From IMG/VR virus record IMGVR_UViG_2531839527_000008: a stretch of DNA of 27,163 nucleotides. One strand, written 5' to 3'. This stretch comes from a virus. Its lineage: Duplodnaviria; Heunggongvirae; Uroviricota; Caudoviricetes. Made by a program: the position numbers and the translations under genes. Shown here piece by piece: positions 7,849-12,906 of this stretch (within the stretch, counting starts at the first letter, position 1; each line of letters opens with the position of its first letter). The notes beneath the pieces were generated by a model that made no database searches, had not been told where the DNA came from, and was given only the letters and a program-made list of their open reading frames with translations.

Positions 7849-10071
7849 TTGGCTGTTCAATTCGCTTATCCGTGGAACGTCCCACGGTCGGCAATCTCCA
7901 GCCCATACCTTACTTATGAGCAACAGCATCGCCGCGACCGTATGTTCGCGGCTTTGCTGCATGCAAAAAAGGTGCTTTCTCTCCAGCCCGACTGCGTGCG
8001 GTTAGATGTTTATCGCACTGCTGCGGTGCTGGAACAAAATCAGGGTAGTCAACGAGCCAATGCATTTTTAATCAGCTTCTGCAAAAAGGCATTGCCGCGT
8101 CTTGAACTGGTCGCAAAAAAATACGAATGCGCTGGTATCAACAGCAAGGTATCAACCGCTGTTTTTGGAAGTCATTTTGATACTCAGCAAATGCAATATC
8201 TGTCGTCACGCATGGTTAATATGGTCGCCCGATATAACCGTCTCCCGGACATGTCGCGCGCTGATGTTGACCTGTTGGCCGCTGATATTGCTAATTTCAT
8301 TCGTGGTGAACTTGCCAACATTAATGACCACGGATTCGGCGAGCTTAAAACGCTGTACACCTGGTATATTCGTGCTGGCTTTATTTCCCTCCAATTCAAC
8401 GTTATCCCACCACATTGGGAGCGGGTTGAAAAAAAATATGTCGGTGCGGATGAAATCGCACCGGCTATCGCCAAAATGTTTAACGATGGGTGGTGGCGCG
8501 GTCGTTTGCGCCGTGTAGCAGCTACGTGGCGCGAACACCTGCAAATTGCAGTCGGCAACGTCAGTAAGAAAAAAAACACTTACGCGAGTAAAAACTGCGT
8601 GACTGACTGGCGTGAACAAAAGCGCCGCACTCGTGAATTTCTCAAAGGTCTGGATCTCGAAGACGAAGACGGCAACCGTATCAGCCTAATTGAAAAATAT
8701 GATGGCTCAGTTGCTAACCCTGCGATTCGCCGCTGTGAGCTCATGACCCGCATTCGTGGGTTTGAAAACATCTGTAATGAGCTCGGTTATGTCGGTGAGT
8801 TTTACACTCTAACCGCGCCGTCAAAATATCACGCCACGACTAAAGCCGGTTACCGTAACAGCAAATGGAGCGGTGCCAGCCCGGCTGACACGCAAAACTA
8901 TCTAACCGGTATCTGGGCGCGTATCCGTGCCAAACTACATCGGGAAGATGTCCGTATTTTCGGTATTCGTGTCGCCGAGCCCCATCACGACGGCACTCCA
9001 CACTGGCACATGCTGATGTTCATGCTGCCGGAAGATGTTGAATATGTTCGCTCCATCGTCCGTAAATACGCATGGAAAGAAGACCGCCACGAACTGAAAA
9101 GCGATAAATCCCAAAAAGCACGTTTCCACGCGGAGTCCATTGACCCGGAGAAAGGCAGCGCAACCGGCTATGTTGCTAAATACATTTCAAAAAATATCGA
9201 CGGTTATGCTCTCGATGGTGAAACCGATGATGAAAGCGGTGAGCTGCTGAAAGAGACAGCCCCCGCCGTTTCAGCATGGGCTGCGCGCTGGCACATCCGT
9301 CAGTTTCAGTTTATTGGTGGTGCGCCGGTGACGGTTTACCGTGAGTTGCGTCGCCTCGCTGATACCGAAACCGCGCACGGTCTGAGCGTTGAGTTTGCCG
9401 CCGTCCATGATGCCGCCGACGCTGGTGACTGGGCTGGTTATGTTAATGCTCAGGGTGGGCCGTTTGTCCGTCGCGATGATTTACAGGTGCGCACACTGTA
9501 TGAACCGCGTACCGAGCTTAATCAGTACGGTGAGGAAACGGTATGTATTAAGGGGGTCTACGATTCCTCCATAGGTGCAGGAAGCCCGATTTTAACCCGG
9601 CTCACTCAGTGGAAGATTGTTCCGAAGCGTGCTGTTGATTTGGCCGTTGACCTTCAGGACGGCAAAGCCGTCCCTCGGAGTTCTGTCAATAACTGTACGG
9701 GAAGCGAAAGCGATCCACCGATACTGGATTTAACAAAACCACTGAGTCGGCGTGAAAGACGAGAATTGACCAACCGACTCAGGAAGCAAAAGCCAGCAGC
9801 ACGGCGAAAATTCATCCACGGAACGGATGAGCAAAACGCAGCTATAGCTAAAACTATCGATGAGATACATCTGACAACCGGCATTAATATCAGCCGGGGC
9901 GAAGCCCTGCACCTGATGGCCGGTGGTAAAAGTTGTTTTGATGGTAAATGGCTACGCGGAACGGCCAAAGGAGAAATATTTTCCGCAGCACCATCGCATG
10001 AGGCTAAAGCTCGGAAAATCCTTAATCGTGTTGCGGCGATGGCTGAAGCATCAAAACCAATACATGAGTAA
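7849..10071 (+). CDS. A: replication initiation endonuclease (P2 gpA / 186 RepA family)
   Basis: 740 aa; TLTAPSKYH, EPHHDGTPHWHMLMF and GYVAKYISKNIDGYALDG motifs; apparent TTG start at 7849 preceded by GGGGGG. Confidence 0.9.
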   Translation: MAVQFAYPWNVPRSAISSPYLTYEQQHRRDRMFAALLHAKKVLSLQPDCVRLDVYRTAAVLEQNQGSQRANAFLISFCKKALPRLELVAKKYECAGINSKVSTAVFGSHFDTQQMQYLSSRMVNMVARYNRLPDMSRADVDLLAADIANFIRGELANINDHGFGELKTLYTWYIRAGFISLQFNVIPPHWERVEKKYVGADEIAPAIAKMFNDGWWRGRLRRVAATWREHLQIAVGNVSKKKNTYASKNCVTDWREQKRRTREFLKGLDLEDEDGNRISLIEKYDGSVANPAIRRCELMTRIRGFENICNELGYVGEFYTLTAPSKYHATTKAGYRNSKWSGASPADTQNYLTGIWARIRAKLHREDVRIFGIRVAEPHHDGTPHWHMLMFMLPEDVEYVRSIVRKYAWKEDRHELKSDKSQKARFHAESIDPEKGSATGYVAKYISKNIDGYALDGETDDESGELLKETAPAVSAWAARWHIRQFQFIGGAPVTVYRELRRLADTETAHGLSVEFAAVHDAADAGDWAGYVNAQGGPFVRRDDLQVRTLYEPRTELNQYGEETVCIKGVYDSSIGAGSPILTRLTQWKIVPKRAVDLAVDLQDGKAVPRSSVNNCTGSESDPPILDLTKPLSRRERRELTNRLRKQKPAARRKFIHGTDEQNAAIAKTIDEIHLTTGINISRGEALHLMAGGKSCFDGKWLRGTAKGEIFSAAPSHEAKARKILNRVAAMAEASKPIHE

Positions 10072-10145
10072 TTCATATCCATATCATGCACATACAGCAA
10101 TCGCTCTATTCGTTTTTTTTCTTCCCATCTTTTGCCAATACGTGC

Positions 10146-10165
10146 TACTGTATAAATATACAGTA
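10146..10165. promoter_or_regulatory. LexA operator (SOS box)
   Basis: TACTGTATAAATATACAGTA: CTGT-N8-ACAG palindrome, 19/20 to the remembered consensus TACTGTATATATATACAGTA; 20 nt upstream of ORF 10185. Confidence 0.75.
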
Positions 10166-10184
10166 ACCCTGTGGGAGGGATTTC

Positions 10185-10367
10185 ATGGTTGGCGAACATT
10201 TCAGCCGAACGCAGCAAAAGTGGGCTTGTGTGCAATTTATTGCCGAGGTATCTCTGATTGCAAACTGCAAGCCATCAGACTTAAAGCTCGCGCTCACTCT
10301 CATTGCAGACCTAGCAAACAGCGAGAATAACGAAACCGAAGATGATAATTTTTATAAGGCTGATTAG
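10185..10367 (+). CDS. small SOS-module protein, possibly N-terminal part of a Tum-like antirepressor
   Basis: Strong SD GGAGGG 5 nt upstream; in same frame as following DinI-like ORF, separated by a single TAG. Confidence 0.5.
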   Translation: MVGEHFSRTQQKWACVQFIAEVSLIANCKPSDLKLALTLIADLANSENNETEDDNFYKAD

Positions 10368-10370
10368 ATT

Positions 10371-10604
10371 ATGAGAATCAATATCACGTTGGATAAAGAG
10401 CAAAAAATTAGTCAGGCAACATTGGATGCACTTGAGGCTGAACTGTACCGCAATCTTCAACCTATTTACCCAAAGACTGCTATCCGAATTCGCAAGGGCT
10501 CCGCTAATGGCGTTGAACTAAGCGGTTTGAAACTGGACGAAGATAAAAAACGAGTAATGGAAATCATGCAGCAGGTATGGGAGGACGATAGCTGGCTGCA
10601 TTAA
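10371..10604 (+). CDS. DinI-family protein (Tum/antirepressor-like C-terminal domain)
   Basis: MRINITLDKEQ...AIRIRKGSANGVELSGLKLDEDKKRVMEIMQQVWEDDSWLH resembles remembered DinI. Confidence 0.8.
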   Translation: MRINITLDKEQKISQATLDALEAELYRNLQPIYPKTAIRIRKGSANGVELSGLKLDEDKKRVMEIMQQVWEDDSWLH

Positions 10605-10606
10605 CA

Positions 10607-10675
10607 AACGCCGCCGGTGCTGAAACTTGCTTTCAGTGCTGGCGGGGTTGAACAACTCGCACCGCGAGGCGCTAG
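10607..10675 (+). repeat. 69-bp repeat element copy 1 (3'-UTR stem-loop)
   Basis: Directly after the DinI-like stop; 60/69 identical to copy 2; contains hairpin CCGCCGGTGCTGAAA-CTTGC-TTTCAGTGCTGGCGG. Confidence 0.6.
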
Positions 10676-10799
10676 TTCTTCCTCTCAAAGTTTCTCGATG
10701 TTTTATTGGTTACACACCAGTGATGAATGGGACGTTACCTTAGCGGGTTTTATAGTGGCGCTGTGGCAGCGCTAAATAAAATTCATTGAGGGCGATAAT

Positions 10800-11009
10800 A
10801 TGCATCGACTACCGGGCGAAATTCCGCAGCACAAAACTAAAAGCATCAAACTGATGGCCATCGTTCATCGTCTGCAGCAGATAATGGTCAATGAGAATTT
10901 GACACCCGCCGAGCTGGTCGGGTGTGCCGAAATAGTCAGGGATAATTACGGCAAGCTGGATAGCATCAGCAAGCCGACACATTACTCACCGCCACCACGT
11001 CGACCATAG
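10800..11009 (+). CDS. hypothetical small protein
   Basis: 69-aa ORF with GAGGG SD; flanked by the two repeat copies. Confidence 0.4.
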   Translation: MHRLPGEIPQHKTKSIKLMAIVHRLQQIMVNENLTPAELVGCAEIVRDNYGKLDSISKPTHYSPPPRRP

Positions 11010-11011
11010 AT

Positions 11012-11080
11012 AACGCCGCCGGAGCTGAAACTCGCTTTCAGGTCTGGCGGGGTTGAACAACGAGCTACGCGAGGCGTTAG
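11012..11080 (+). repeat. 69-bp repeat element copy 2
   Basis: Begins 2 nt after stop of ORF 10800..11009; 60/69 identity to copy 1. Confidence 0.6.
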
Positions 11081-11142
11081 CCGGTCATAGCGTCGCAAAT
11101 ACTTCAACCGTCTGCTGGTTAAATAATTCGAGGTTTTTGGAC

Positions 11143-11337
11143 ATGCAAAATCCCCTTTCATCGAAAAATGACCCGTTTGCCGATTGGGCAAAGAATCTGA
11201 CTTTAATGGCTTTAAATAACGACCTGAGCTCTCGCGAGGGGGAAAGCTACACCGCAAAAATGGTCGGGCAGGCCGGTAAAGATGAGCTATCAGTCGTTAT
11301 CAAACACCTGTTAAATCACATCAGAATGCGCAAATAA
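11143..11337 (+). CDS. hypothetical small protein
   Basis: Internal ATG 11143 with GAGG upstream preferred over ORF-track start 11053, which lies inside repeat copy 2. Confidence 0.35.
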   Translation: MQNPLSSKNDPFADWAKNLTLMALNNDLSSREGESYTAKMVGQAGKDELSVVIKHLLNHIRMRK

Positions 11338-11901: not shown

Positions 11902-12906
11902 CTAATTTACATGTATGTAGAGTTCACCGTCGCCAGACCAATCGGGACACTCTAAAACAAGCCCAAACTGCTTGAATATTTCATCAATGATTATTGTTAT
12001 CTCCCGAAAATCACCAAAACCTGTAATGTGCTGGTCATTAAACTTCCCATAAAGATTCTGAAAAGCAATGCCTAATTCTGATAATTGATATCTTATCTTT
12101 GAGTTGGATAGTGTAAGGGATAGCTTTGGATCGTATTCTTTAATATTGATGTTTAGAGAATGGACATAACCCATCGCATAAGCATAAGAGTTGATGATTA
12201 GCCTGATACGTTTTTTTACTTCAAGATACATGTCATTCAGAGAAATATTACCGTACTTATAACCCCAGATGAGTTTTTCAATCTCGTCAGATACTTCATT
12301 TACAACAGTGTCAAGATTCTCTAAAAATAAATCGACAGTTTCTTGAGGGGCAGACCCCGAAGACATGTAATTAGCGAGATATTCAGACCATGCACGCGTG
12401 GCTGAGATAAGAAGCGCGCTACCATACTCGTTGACTGTAAAGTTTTGGGCTAAGCATGTTAGTAAGTTTTTTTCATGTACGTGCACTAATTCATGGTGAA
12501 TGCGATGGATGACTGCGAGGTATCCTTCTTCTTTCAGTTTTAAGAAGCTACCATCATTGAAAAGCTCAACAAAAAAATCAATCGATAGCACAAGGGTATA
12601 TTCTTCATATAGCCCATCATTGCCAATTTTTGTTACTAACTGCCCGACGGCTGCGCCCTGTTTGCTATTGGTAAATGAACTAGGGGATTTGTGTTGGTAA
12701 GAGGATGTTACCTTTTGAAGAGCTTCACTGAAGTTATAGGAAACAATCACGCATTTTAATTTGGAGATATCAAGATTGAGATTCTTTGTTAAAGCTCGGA
12801 TAGCTTCTAGTGTGAAATTACCGATATTATTTGCTTCTTGCTCAGTAGCGAAACCTTCGAGGGTTATTTTAAAATCAGTTTCCAAAATATTAATCTCCGC
12901 GCCCAT
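11902..12906 (-). CDS. AT-rich cargo protein with HExxH motif (putative zinc metallo-hydrolase), candidate defence/exclusion gene
   Basis: 334-aa ORF in visibly AT-rich DNA inserted between cos and portal gene; IHRIHHELVHVHE with HELVH encoded at 12481..12495 (minus). Confidence 0.6.
   Translation of the reverse strand: MGAEINILETDFKITLEGFATEQEANNIGNFTLEAIRALTKNLNLDISKLKCVIVSYNFSEALQKVTSSYQHKSPSSFTNSKQGAAVGQLVTKIGNDGLYEEYTLVLSIDFFVELFNDGSFLKLKEEGYLAVIHRIHHELVHVHEKNLLTCLAQNFTVNEYGSALLISATRAWSEYLANYMSSGSAPQETVDLFLENLDTVVNEVSDEIEKLIWGYKYGNISLNDMYLEVKKRIRLIINSYAYAMGYVHSLNINIKEYDPKLSLTLSNSKIRYQLSELGIAFQNLYGKFNDQHITGFGDFREITIIIDEIFKQFGLVLECPDWSGDGELYIHVN

Follow-up and report, generated by a model that had tools for sequence, protein, structure and literature searches.

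Phage 186 encodes Tum (NP_052290), a LexA-controlled antirepressor of 146 aa that belongs to the p95 SOS operon and whose second half is DinI-like (PMC3121763), as an earlier note on the DNA studied here correctly stated. The 186 record also lists a second product that comprises the DinI-like part alone and starts at an internal GTG. The biochemistry of Tum and CI in 186 (Shearwin et al. 1998, as relayed in PMC3121763) is the basis for regarding the CI repressor as the target of such proteins. In the Salmonella phage PSP3 and in Fels-2, tum is split by a stop codon, and the antirepressor activity is ascribed to the upstream gene (Lemire et al. 2011, PMC3121763); for TumA of PSP3, the sole statement to this effect is a personal communication relayed via two papers. 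The PSP3 record (AY135486; AAN08399, AAN08400) describes tumA as 'similar to 5' end 186 tum; UV induction of prophage' and tumB as 'similar to dinI and 3' end of 186 tum'.

Related arrangements are found in two further systems. First, in the prophage DuoHS of E. coli HS, tum (ECHS_RS04495) is a 62-aa gene and the DinI-like gene (ECHS_RS04500) is separate, following the TGA of tum after 10 nt, out of frame and with a Shine-Dalgarno sequence of its own; in-frame deletion of tum abolishes mitomycin C lysis, and lexA(Ind-) also blocks induction (PMC12055606). Second, the dinI-gfoA, dinI-gftA and dinI-gfhA operons of Gifsy-1, -2 and -3 are repressed by LexA and combine a DinI homologue with a small antirepressor directed against a non-cleavable repressor (PMC3121763), and deletions of the dinI homologues had no induction phenotype in Gifsy prophages (Lemire et al. 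2011, PMC3121763).

Here we analyse a viral DNA stretch of 27,163 nt (Caudoviricetes; IMG/VR record IMGVR_UViG_2531839527_000008), referred to as the window, in which a LexA box precedes a 60-aa ORF and, in the same frame, a DinI-like ORF. This locus is very probably an intact SOS-induction operon of a PSP3-type prophage (Eganvirus, phage 186-like) in its normal two-gene tumA-tumB form. The two-gene version of tum has already been described.

Results

Prophage context of the operon

The domains detected in the window, namely, CI, CII, Int and DUF5347, fit a P2-family prophage that is 186-like (CI/CII-type) and has a CI of the PSP3 type. This CI, of 286 aa, is 98% identical to that of PSP3, but only 31% identical to the 192-aa CI of 186 and 35% identical to the 189-aa CI of DuoHS; by analogy with 186, it is the presumed target of TumA. 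An A-like replicase ORF (7849-10071) precedes the tum module, which is the placement seen in 186 and PSP3 as well. The features of the operon and of cI are collected in Table 1. No Rfam match was obtained across the window.

The region shares 95-96% DNA identity with PSP3, SEN1, SW9, Midge and RCIP0057, and tumA and tumB genes occur also in SEN1, SW9, SI22, Midge, RCIP0057 and vB_EcoM-613R3; in the RCIP0057 record the name 'tum' is placed on the DinI-like gene. A region with 100% identity is present in E. coli JKHS016. PSP3 has the same LexA box, 60-aa tumA, TAG-ATT-ATG junction and 77-aa tumB, and the two operons differ by point substitutions only, whereas the cargo genes downstream are different. 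Among the latter, a minus-strand ORF of 334 aa (11902-12906) is shared with vB_EcoM-613R3 and absent from PSP3, and a PADLOC search of the neighbouring cargo ORFs returned nothing.

Table 1. Positions of the tum operon features and of cI in the window.
Feature	Coordinates	Strand	Basis and details
cI immunity repressor	4926..5786	-	Pfam Phage_CI_repr and Phage_CI_C domains
p95-like SOS promoter (predicted)	10122..10151	+	Homology with phage 186; -35 TTCCCA 10122-10127, 18-nt spacer, -10 TACTGT 10146-10151
LexA operator (SOS box, predicted) TACTGTATAAATATACAGTA, over the -10 hexamer	10146..10165	+	19/20 against the consensus TACTGTATATATATACAGTA
tumA Shine-Dalgarno GGGAGGG, 5 nt 5' of the ATG	10173..10179	+	Anti-SD duplex -10.7 kcal/mol
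tumA, gene of a 60-aa putative antirepressor; homologue of the 186 Tum N-terminal half	10185..10367	+	TAG stop 10365-10367
Junction TAG-ATT-ATG: tumA stop, one codon (10368-10370), tumB start, one frame	10365..10373	+	Direct sequence reading
tumB, 77-aa DinI-like protein	10371..10604	+	Pfam DinI PF06183, 84.3 bits, E 7e-24
Stable RNA hairpin just 3' of the tumB stop, no U-tract	10607..10649	+	RNA folding

A single LexA box and a p95-like promoter

The near-perfect SOS box pointed out in the earlier note was confirmed (Table 1), and it is the sole match to the LexA consensus at up to three mismatches in the 27-kb window; 100 shuffled sequences gave no such match. Likewise, the stricter core CTGT-N8-ACAG occurs once in the window, at this box. 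The gap between the predicted LexA box and the ATG of tumA is 19 nt, and the same box is present in PSP3, SEN1 and SW9. More broadly, all 29 species-level loci that we compared have a CTG-N10-CAG box 5' of their tumA homologue, at a distance of 35-41 nt (70 nt at three loci).

In a DNA alignment, the stretch TTTTTTTCTTC(C/A)CA(T/C)CTTTTGCCAATACGTGCTACTGTAT is near-identical to the annotated p95 of 186, covering its -35, -10 and LexA site, which suggests a promoter of the p95 type to which LexA is predicted to bind. A generic scan for sigma-70 promoters and terminators over positions 10000-11100 made no calls. The p95-like promoter was missed because both of its hexamers are far from consensus, and the promoter assignment is therefore based entirely on homology with 186.

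TumA is a conserved protein related to the N-terminal half of 186 Tum

The 60-aa product of the first ORF aligns over 60/60 residues with PSP3 TumA, at 98.3% identity. That the locus is a homologue of 186 tum, as had been proposed, is borne out by the alignment of a conceptual TumA-TumB fusion with 186 Tum, which is colinear (37% identity, E 4e-32), with the antirepressor module first and the DinI-like module second in both cases. For TumA by itself the relationship is more distant, the N-terminal halves being about 34% identical over 41 residues only. BLASTP of the 60-aa ORF against the 70-residue N-terminal half of 186 Tum alone gave no alignment, and a tblastn search of phage records with TumA failed to pick up 186. 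Since simple BLAST was blank, the homology had to be established by other means, namely, the colinear alignment together with shuffled controls, profile comparison and PHROG profiles. First, the Smith-Waterman score of TumA against the N-terminal half of 186 Tum was 60, compared with 21.9 +/- 4.1 for shuffled sequences, none of which (0/2000) reached it (z ~9). Second, hhalign gave a probability of 86% and an E of 5e-6 over 32 columns. Third, phrog_1993 was matched by both TumA (1e-31) and 186 Tum (1.5e-23). The similarity to DuoHS Tum, which falls in phrog_698 rather than in phrog_1993, is only remote: 57 of 2000 shuffles reached the pairwise score, which is not convincing, and the link between these two proteins comes from shared PHROG hits.

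Homologues of TumA form 208 clusters at 90% identity. Among the 120 clusters listed, the proteins end at about 60-61 aa, after the motif FYKAE/D, a few being up to six residues longer; the only shorter ones are two calls, of 51 aa and 56 aa, that are truncated. The core from W13 to A44 is near-invariant, and the dN/dS of tumA is 0.05-0.13 at dS values of 0.8-1.8, which means that this gene is under strong purifying selection. AlphaFold2 predicted a two-helix hairpin (residues 8-25 and 30-50; pLDDT 72), and when PDB sequences were searched with a profile of TumA, only noise was obtained (E >= 0.6). No Pfam or NCBIfam model exists for TumA, which is a 'hypothetical protein' in RefSeq and of 'unknown function' in PHROGs. 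An antirepressor function is suggested by the statement on PSP3 (PMC3121763) and, by analogy, by the effect of the tum deletion in DuoHS (PMC12055606).

These data bear on the possibility that the 60-aa ORF is a leader that brings ribosomes to tumB, its peptide being functionless and the antirepressor encoded elsewhere. Such a role would suit a tumB that lies 3 nt past the tumA stop and has no good ribosome-binding site. However, it is the amino-acid sequence that is conserved, and not the frame alone, as the near-invariant core and the dN/dS of at most 0.13 make clear. Moreover, the ORF is retained without a downstream DinI gene, both at 21 of the 29 species-level loci and in FORC 064, an E. 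coli strain in which tumA stands alone. Its product is a homologue of the first half of 186 Tum and has PHROG families in common with DuoHS Tum, the deletion of which prevents induction. We consider a mere leader very unlikely, and favour TumA as a protein with a function of its own.

The stop codon of tumA among homologues

The 60-aa ORF and the DinI-like ORF are indeed in one frame with TAG and a single codon between them, all coordinates being as originally described. From this arrangement it had been proposed that the tum homologue is interrupted by a nonsense codon, with a natural two-protein arrangement as the alternative. In its strong form, the first proposal would be that a once-fused gene of the 186 type was hit by a nonsense mutation, with SOS inducibility lost or weakened. 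The geometry lends itself to this reading, as one base change would fuse the two ORFs, and in the colinear alignment with 186 Tum the TAG faces the codon for Gly69 (GGC). In 186, the two modules are joined in a single reading frame, with a linker 12 codons longer, whereas here they are separated by the stop.

The survey of homologues speaks against such a lesion. First, all homologues examined have a stop, in a set that spans about 20 enterobacterial genera and extends beyond the saturation of synonymous sites, and none has a sense codon at the position of 10365-10367, which the earlier note had suggested checking. In the 29 species-level loci, where this stop is TAG, TAA or TGA, 25 of the tumA ORFs end at 59-62 residues, the remaining four being shorter calls (51, 51, 51 and 37). 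Second, no fusion to DinI was found among about 150 TumA protein clusters and representatives, and of the 35 representatives at 50% identity, 34 stand alone or lack a link to DinI. The 35th, a repetitive protein of 931 aa, was set aside as spurious, and a 137-aa protein considered as a possible TumA-DinI fusion (P0265) was rejected, its tail not being DinI-like. Third, loci with TumA only are common: a DinI-like gene follows tumA in 8 of the 29 species-level loci and is absent from the other 21. Fourth, tumA is under strong purifying selection, as noted above. Fifth, the identical junction occurs in the free-living phages PSP3, Midge, SW9 and RCIP0057, and also in SEN1, which derives from the inducible Salmonella strain Sen1, where mitomycin C raises phage production (PMC5261728 Table 2).

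With viable phages carrying the same junction, the suspicion that the split might compromise SOS induction falls, and a tum decayed by mutation is extremely unlikely. The natural two-protein alternative proves to be the right one, in agreement with the tumA/tumB annotation of PSP3 and with PMC3121763: the homology with tum stands, and the interruption does not. The note had named, as what would speak against it, two separate genes as the conserved state together with a lack of similarity between the 60-aa ORF and the Tum N-terminus; two separate genes are what we found, but the similarity is there. Based on these comparisons, the stop that ends tumA is best read as ancestral and selected, and the TAG between tumA and tumB as a conserved gene boundary, with no prophage-disabling mutation.

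The fused form was also looked at from the side of 186. A search with the 186-type N-domain gave, among the 120 clusters listed, 15 proteins that continue into DinI and 105 short forms, a count that is qualitative only, and possibly biased, because full-length 146-aa proteins are missing from the clusters listed. Judging from the survey as a whole, it is the fused Tum of 186 that seems exceptional.

Conservation of the junction and readthrough

The in-frame arrangement could alternatively serve programmed or leaky readthrough of the amber codon, in which case a 139-aa TumA-X-Ile-TumB protein would be the real 186-like antirepressor or have a distinct activity. What may be cited for this is that the PSP3 clade retains the in-frame TAG-NTT-ATG without exception, as all 61 genuine junctions found in IMG/VR have TAG; four further matches to the junction pattern, with codons other than TAG, were inspected and belong to unrelated loci. 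A TumA-TumB fusion would also be produced in laboratory hosts that suppress amber codons (supE, supF). However, the conservation of the junction extends only over loci with about 95% DNA identity, and it is thus explicable by common descent. In homologues further away the stop is TAA or TGA, 21 of the 29 species-level loci have no DinI gene, and, while the PSP3 clade and one other locus (L016) have in-frame junctions, the DinI genes elsewhere are out of frame, after gaps of 2 nt (L024), 17 nt (L028), 13 nt (L029) and 10 nt (DuoHS). No conserved structure that would promote readthrough was found in the RNA around the junction, and there was no Rfam match; the predicted fold is a weak, non-significant hairpin over the AUG of tumB (z -1.8), equalled in stability by 11 of 200 shuffles.

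Readthrough as the principal route to the antirepressor is therefore extremely improbable. A milder version, in which slight natural readthrough of UAG-AUU-AUG in the PSP3 clade yields some 139-aa fusion, similar to 186 Tum, that tunes the induction threshold, is hardly to be expected either; if true, it would mean three products from two genes, and a large amount of the fusion in supE and supF hosts.

TumB and the 3' end of the operon

The description of the 77-aa ORF as DinI-like was corroborated by its Pfam match (Table 1), which spans residues 15-76 and lies well above the gathering cut-off of 24.2 bits, and by the match to E. coli DinI (PDB 1GHH; E 2.6e-9), which runs end-to-end over residues 1-75 and includes the acidic C-terminal helix. 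With the NCBIfam equivalog for chromosomal DinI (NF007893), TumB scores 52.3 bits, below the cut-off of 111 bits, which marks it as a phage DinI-like paralogue rather than an orthologue of the host DinI. Its identity is 48% to the C-terminal half of 186 Tum and 79% to the DinI-like protein of DuoHS. The partner of a given TumA may differ, since Escherichia sp. E1V33 has a TumA with 98% identity and a TumB with 47%.

The start of tumB aligns exactly with the annotated internal GTG of 186 from which 'truncated Tum' begins. In 186 this GTG has a strong Shine-Dalgarno sequence (-12.1 kcal/mol), whereas the best anti-SD duplex in the 20 nt upstream of tumB reaches -3.8 kcal/mol, with AAGG 11 nt before the ATG, which is too distant; the ribosome-binding site was thus rightly called poor. 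This weakness, alongside the 3-nt distance from stop to start, makes it probable that translation of tumB is coupled to termination at tumA.

Just downstream of tumB, a 73-nt stretch, which holds the hairpin listed in Table 1 and a second small hairpin, folds with -35.9 kcal/mol (z -4.7), and none of 200 shuffles folds as well. The terminator scan made no call at the hairpin of 10607-10649. Its position is that of the partial terminator t95a in 186, and it may therefore be a partial terminator or a stabiliser of the mRNA 3' end.

Discussion

The following course of events would be consistent with these observations. In a lysogen, LexA sitting on the operator that overlaps the -10 of the p95-like promoter would hold the operon silent. 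After DNA damage, active RecA would bring about the self-cleavage of LexA, and the operon would be transcribed. TumA, translated from a strong ribosome-binding site, would bind the prophage CI non-covalently and block the binding of CI to its operators, leading to lytic growth. Ribosomes that end at the tumA TAG would probably restart 3 nt on, at the ATG of tumB, and the amount of TumB would then be tied to that of TumA. As a separate DinI-like protein, TumB would likely modulate RecA filaments and the SOS response, an accessory component outside the antirepressor proper.

The operon resembles that of DuoHS: in both, the replicase gene is followed by a LexA box, an antirepressor gene of its own with a product of about 60 aa, and a distinct DinI-like gene. 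The resemblance to the Gifsy operons, drawn from their published description, concerns the pairing of functions under LexA; there, dinI precedes the antirepressor gene, opposite to the order seen here, and the phages are lambdoid, with repressors of the DicA/RacR type.

For genome annotation, these results mean that the SOS-induction module of this prophage is complete and that its TAG should be treated as a gene boundary and not as the lesion of a pseudogene. As TumA has no named family model, LexA-controlled antirepressors of 186-like prophages are systematically missed. Our survey adds modest detail to the known picture of tum modularity, in which, judging from the loci compared, the module always includes the antirepressor, of about 60 aa, and the DinI-like gene is an optional part that is exchanged independently.

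Organization of the LexA-controlled tumA-tumB operon

In the window, early genes of a P2/186-family prophage encode an integrase, a CI repressor (Phage_CI_repr and Phage_CI_C), a CII protein (CP76) and a DUF5347 protein, with portal and terminase genes downstream. For its tum operon, all that the earlier note had stated as fact was confirmed. The near-perfect SOS box that had been claimed upstream of the 60-aa ORF is the sole such site in the window, and shuffled sequences gave none; by sequence, this LexA operator overlaps the -10 element of a promoter homologous to p95, the SOS promoter of coliphage 186. The product of the downstream ORF clearly belongs to the DinI family (Pfam, 84 bits), with E. 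coli DinI (1GHH) aligned over its full length, and its ribosome-binding site is weak (-3.8 kcal/mol) and poorly spaced. The 73-nt stretch holding the hairpin that follows tumB folds at -35.9 kcal/mol (z -4.7). Beyond it, two small ORFs on the same strand match PHROGs of unknown function and, by analogy with orf97 of 186, may be read-through members of the operon.

Features of the tum operon and of neighbouring regions (window coordinates)
Feature	Position	Strand	Remarks
Integration-site region	413-2137, 3516-4556	+, -	prophage integrated next to dgcN (GGDEF/CHASE8) and yfiB
DUF2511 ORF	4579-4989	-	between int and cI; equivalent of PSP3 gp28; small, cargo-like, on the strand of the lysogenic operon
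CI repressor	4926-5786	-	286 aa; same 286-aa form in PSP3
123-aa ORF	5908-6279	+	Apl/Cox position, divergent from cI; corresponds to PSP3 gp30
P2 A-type replicase ORF	7849-10071		740 aa; tum operon follows directly
LexA box	10146-10165		TACTGTATAAATATACAGTA; 19/20 consensus positions
tumA Shine-Dalgarno	10173-10179		GGGAGGG; strong, -10.7 kcal/mol
tumA	10185-10367	+	60 codons; ATG at 10185, TAG stop at 10365-10367
Junction	10365-10373	+	TAG, ATT, then tumB ATG at 10371, 3 nt past the tumA stop
tumB	10371-10604	+	77 codons; same frame as tumA
Hairpin	10607-10649		stable, lacks a U-tract; position of the 186 partial terminator t95a
Small ORF	10800-11009	+	phrog_11386; matches PSP3 gp37
Small ORF	11053-11337	+	phrog_2454
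334-aa ORF	11902-12906	-	between tum operon and portal gene; cargo position of P2 old/tin and 186 orf97

The arrangement is that of PSP3

Over this 600-bp region, the window shares 100% identity with a prophage of E. coli JKHS016, and 95-96% with Salmonella phage PSP3 and with SEN1, SW9, SI22, Midge and RCIP0057. The GenBank record of PSP3 describes tumA as 'similar to 5' end 186 tum; UV induction of prophage' and tumB as 'similar to dinI and 3' end of 186 tum'. Lemire, Figueroa-Bossi and Bossi noted that 186 Tum resembles an antirepressor fused to DinI (PMC3121763), and a passage of that article places the antirepressor activity of split tum in the upstream gene, citing a personal communication of G. 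E. Christie in Bunny et al. 2002. GenBank annotation and published work have thus covered the two-gene arrangement from the early 2000s onward.

The tumA stop codon as a conserved gene end

The earlier note had left two options, namely, a tum gene interrupted by an amber codon or a natural two-protein arrangement, and had proposed looking for a sense codon at 10365-10367 in homologues. Several surveys bear on this choice. First, a protein-cluster search of 5.8 billion proteins returned 208 TumA clusters. Escherichia, Salmonella, Klebsiella, Citrobacter, Enterobacter, Cronobacter, Yokenella, Kosakonia, Pluralibacter, Atlantibacter and Buttiauxella are among the sources of the 120 clusters listed. 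Except for two calls cut short at 51 and 56 aa, and a few whose C-terminus runs on by as many as 6 residues, these share the same C-terminal end (...FYKAE/D, 60-61 aa). The longer calls are N-terminal over-extensions reaching back through the LexA box. Among 1.84 billion representatives searched exhaustively with an HMM, 35 matched TumA, none of them fused to DinI. Second, among 29 loci from species-level genomes, all with an upstream LexA box, the tumA ORF has 59-62 codons in 25 and is called shorter in four (51, 51, 51 and 37); it ends in TAG, TAA or TGA, and a DinI-like gene follows in only eight. Third, TAG is present in 61/61 genuine PSP3-type junctions in IMG/VR; four further matches to the junction pattern were unrelated DNA.

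Moreover, tumA has a dN/dS of 0.05-0.13 at dS of 0.8-1.8, and the TumA core, from W13 to A44, is nearly invariant. Since the stop is conserved across clusters, loci and viral junctions, with selection acting on tumA, sequence comparison shows it to be an old, selected gene end. The interrupted-gene option, a pseudogene arising by nonsense mutation in tum, is thereby excluded, and the two-protein option holds. That the 60-aa ORF might be a leader lacking a functional peptide is contradicted by its conservation at the amino-acid level and by the existence of TumA-only loci. Functional readthrough of the amber codon is not supported either: in-frame junctions take the form TAG-ATT/TTT-ATG in close relatives only, and TAA-GCG-ATG in an Atlantibacter MAG (L016), whereas others are out of frame (TAG-AT-ATG, TAA plus 13 nt, TAA plus 17 nt), so that, outside the closely related clade, neither the frame nor the kind of stop is conserved, and the downstream gene itself is not always present.

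Comparison with 186 Tum

The module also proved tum-like, as had been proposed: promoter and operator DNA are nearly identical to those of 186, and the conceptual TumA-TumB fusion is colinear with 186 Tum (37% identity, E 4e-32). In the 186 record, p95 and its LexA site precede tum (146 aa), for which three nested shorter products are also given; the shortest has a GTG start and is entered as 'truncated Tum - modulates SOS induction'. At the junction, GAT-TAG-ATT-ATG-AGA of the window lies opposite GAG-GGC-AAA-GTG-AAA of 186, such that the TAG falls at the Gly69 codon and the tumB ATG coincides precisely with the internal GTG start. Hence, following the 186 annotation, the DinI-like module would be a product of its own in both phages, but 186 additionally joins it to the antirepressor module.

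The N-terminal halves are divergent, and BLASTP of these halves alone gave no match. Despite this divergence they are judged homologous, from a Smith-Waterman score of 60 (shuffles, 21.9 +/- 4.1; 0/2000 as high), from hhalign of the two family alignments (86% probability, E 5e-6, over the conserved core), and from phrog_1993, which is matched by TumA (E 1e-31) and by the 186 half (1.5e-23).

Exchange of the DinI-like gene

In E. coli, tumA is followed by the same tumB in some cases, by a different DinI allele in others, and elsewhere by no DinI gene. Several E. coli genomes are 99% identical to the window until about 40 nt into tumB, where a different allele begins; Escherichia sp. E1V33 has TumA at 98% and TumB at 47% identity; and in E. 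coli FORC 064 the match ends at the tumA stop, the DinI gene being absent. TumA is therefore a self-sufficient module, and the DinI-like gene an exchangeable accessory.

Recombination break points fall on the tumA/tumB boundary or slightly inside it (near window position 10411; loci L036, L005 and L037). In the Atlantibacter MAG, the DinI-like gene (1687-1916) matches TumB as two pieces in different frames, possibly a frameshifted tumB or an assembly error. Enterobacterial-type tumA loci (84-90% identity) on contigs labelled 'Bacillota bacterium MAG' and 'Chryseobacterium sp.' (L009 and L012) probably reflect contamination or mis-binning.

Proposed mechanism and evidence from relatives

Drawing on the 186 biochemistry summarised in PMC3121763 and on relatives, LexA cleavage would derepress the operon; TumA, predicted to fold as a two-helix hairpin (pLDDT 72), would bind CI and block its operator binding; and TumB, made by termination-reinitiation, would act on RecA filaments as DinI does. 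In DuoHS, a prophage of E. coli HS, in-frame deletion of tum abolished mitomycin C-induced lysis, as did lexA(Ind-) (PMC12055606). This tum (ECHS_RS04495) encodes 62 aa and is preceded by a LexA box, with a separate DinI-like gene 10 nt downstream in another frame; its product belongs to a PHROG other than that of TumA, but that PHROG cross-hits with the 186 N-half and, weakly, with phrog_1993. Mitomycin C also increases the phage output of Salmonella strain Sen1, from which SEN1 comes (PMC5261728, Table 2); the SEN1 junction is identical to that of the window. The same junction occurs in Midge, SW9 and RCIP0057, phages from water, a beach sample and sewage.

FORC 064 combines a TumA 80% identical to that of the window with a 205-aa CI that is 49% identical overall to the window CI (193 aligned positions). 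Its HTH domain is about 80% identical, as estimated by eye, to the second HTH copy of the window CI, whereas the C-terminal domain has diverged. It is thus tempting to speculate that TumA recognises the DNA-binding domain of CI, as this pairing hints.

Other features of the prophage

The window CI is longer than that of 186 (192 aa) because its N-terminal HTH domain is doubled in tandem: residues about 14-83 share 50% identity with residues 100-173, and Phage_CI_repr matches two stretches (putative start at the first ATG). This does not fit the 'longer C-terminal domain' reported for PsP3 CI by Nilsson et al. (PMC3448106). The 123-aa ORF has no Pfam match and a weak PHROG match to a Cox-like excisionase (8e-5); Nilsson et al. 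described PSP3 gp30 as a singleton with no detectable relation to other Cox/Apl proteins (PMC3448106). The 334-aa ORF, shared with phage vB_EcoM-613R3 but absent from PSP3, matched nothing in Pfam or PADLOC, its one match being phrog_11743 (unknown function); a cargo gene for lysogenic conversion or for defence is one possibility. At the same dgcN/yfiB site, FORC 064 (L043) carries a prophage of a different immunity type (the 205-aa CI), whose replicase gene, containing an internal stop, is annotated as a pseudogene.

An annotation gap for SOS antirepressors

The TumA family has neither a Pfam nor an NCBIfam model, its E. coli members are labelled 'hypothetical protein' in RefSeq, and phrog_1993 is labelled 'unknown function'; in some phage records, such as that of RCIP0057, the name tum is given instead to the DinI-like gene. 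This labelling amounts to an annotation gap for SOS antirepressors. The by-products of our analysis are modest, namely, a TumA family that is as yet unmodelled, and a survey showing that its DinI partner is optional.
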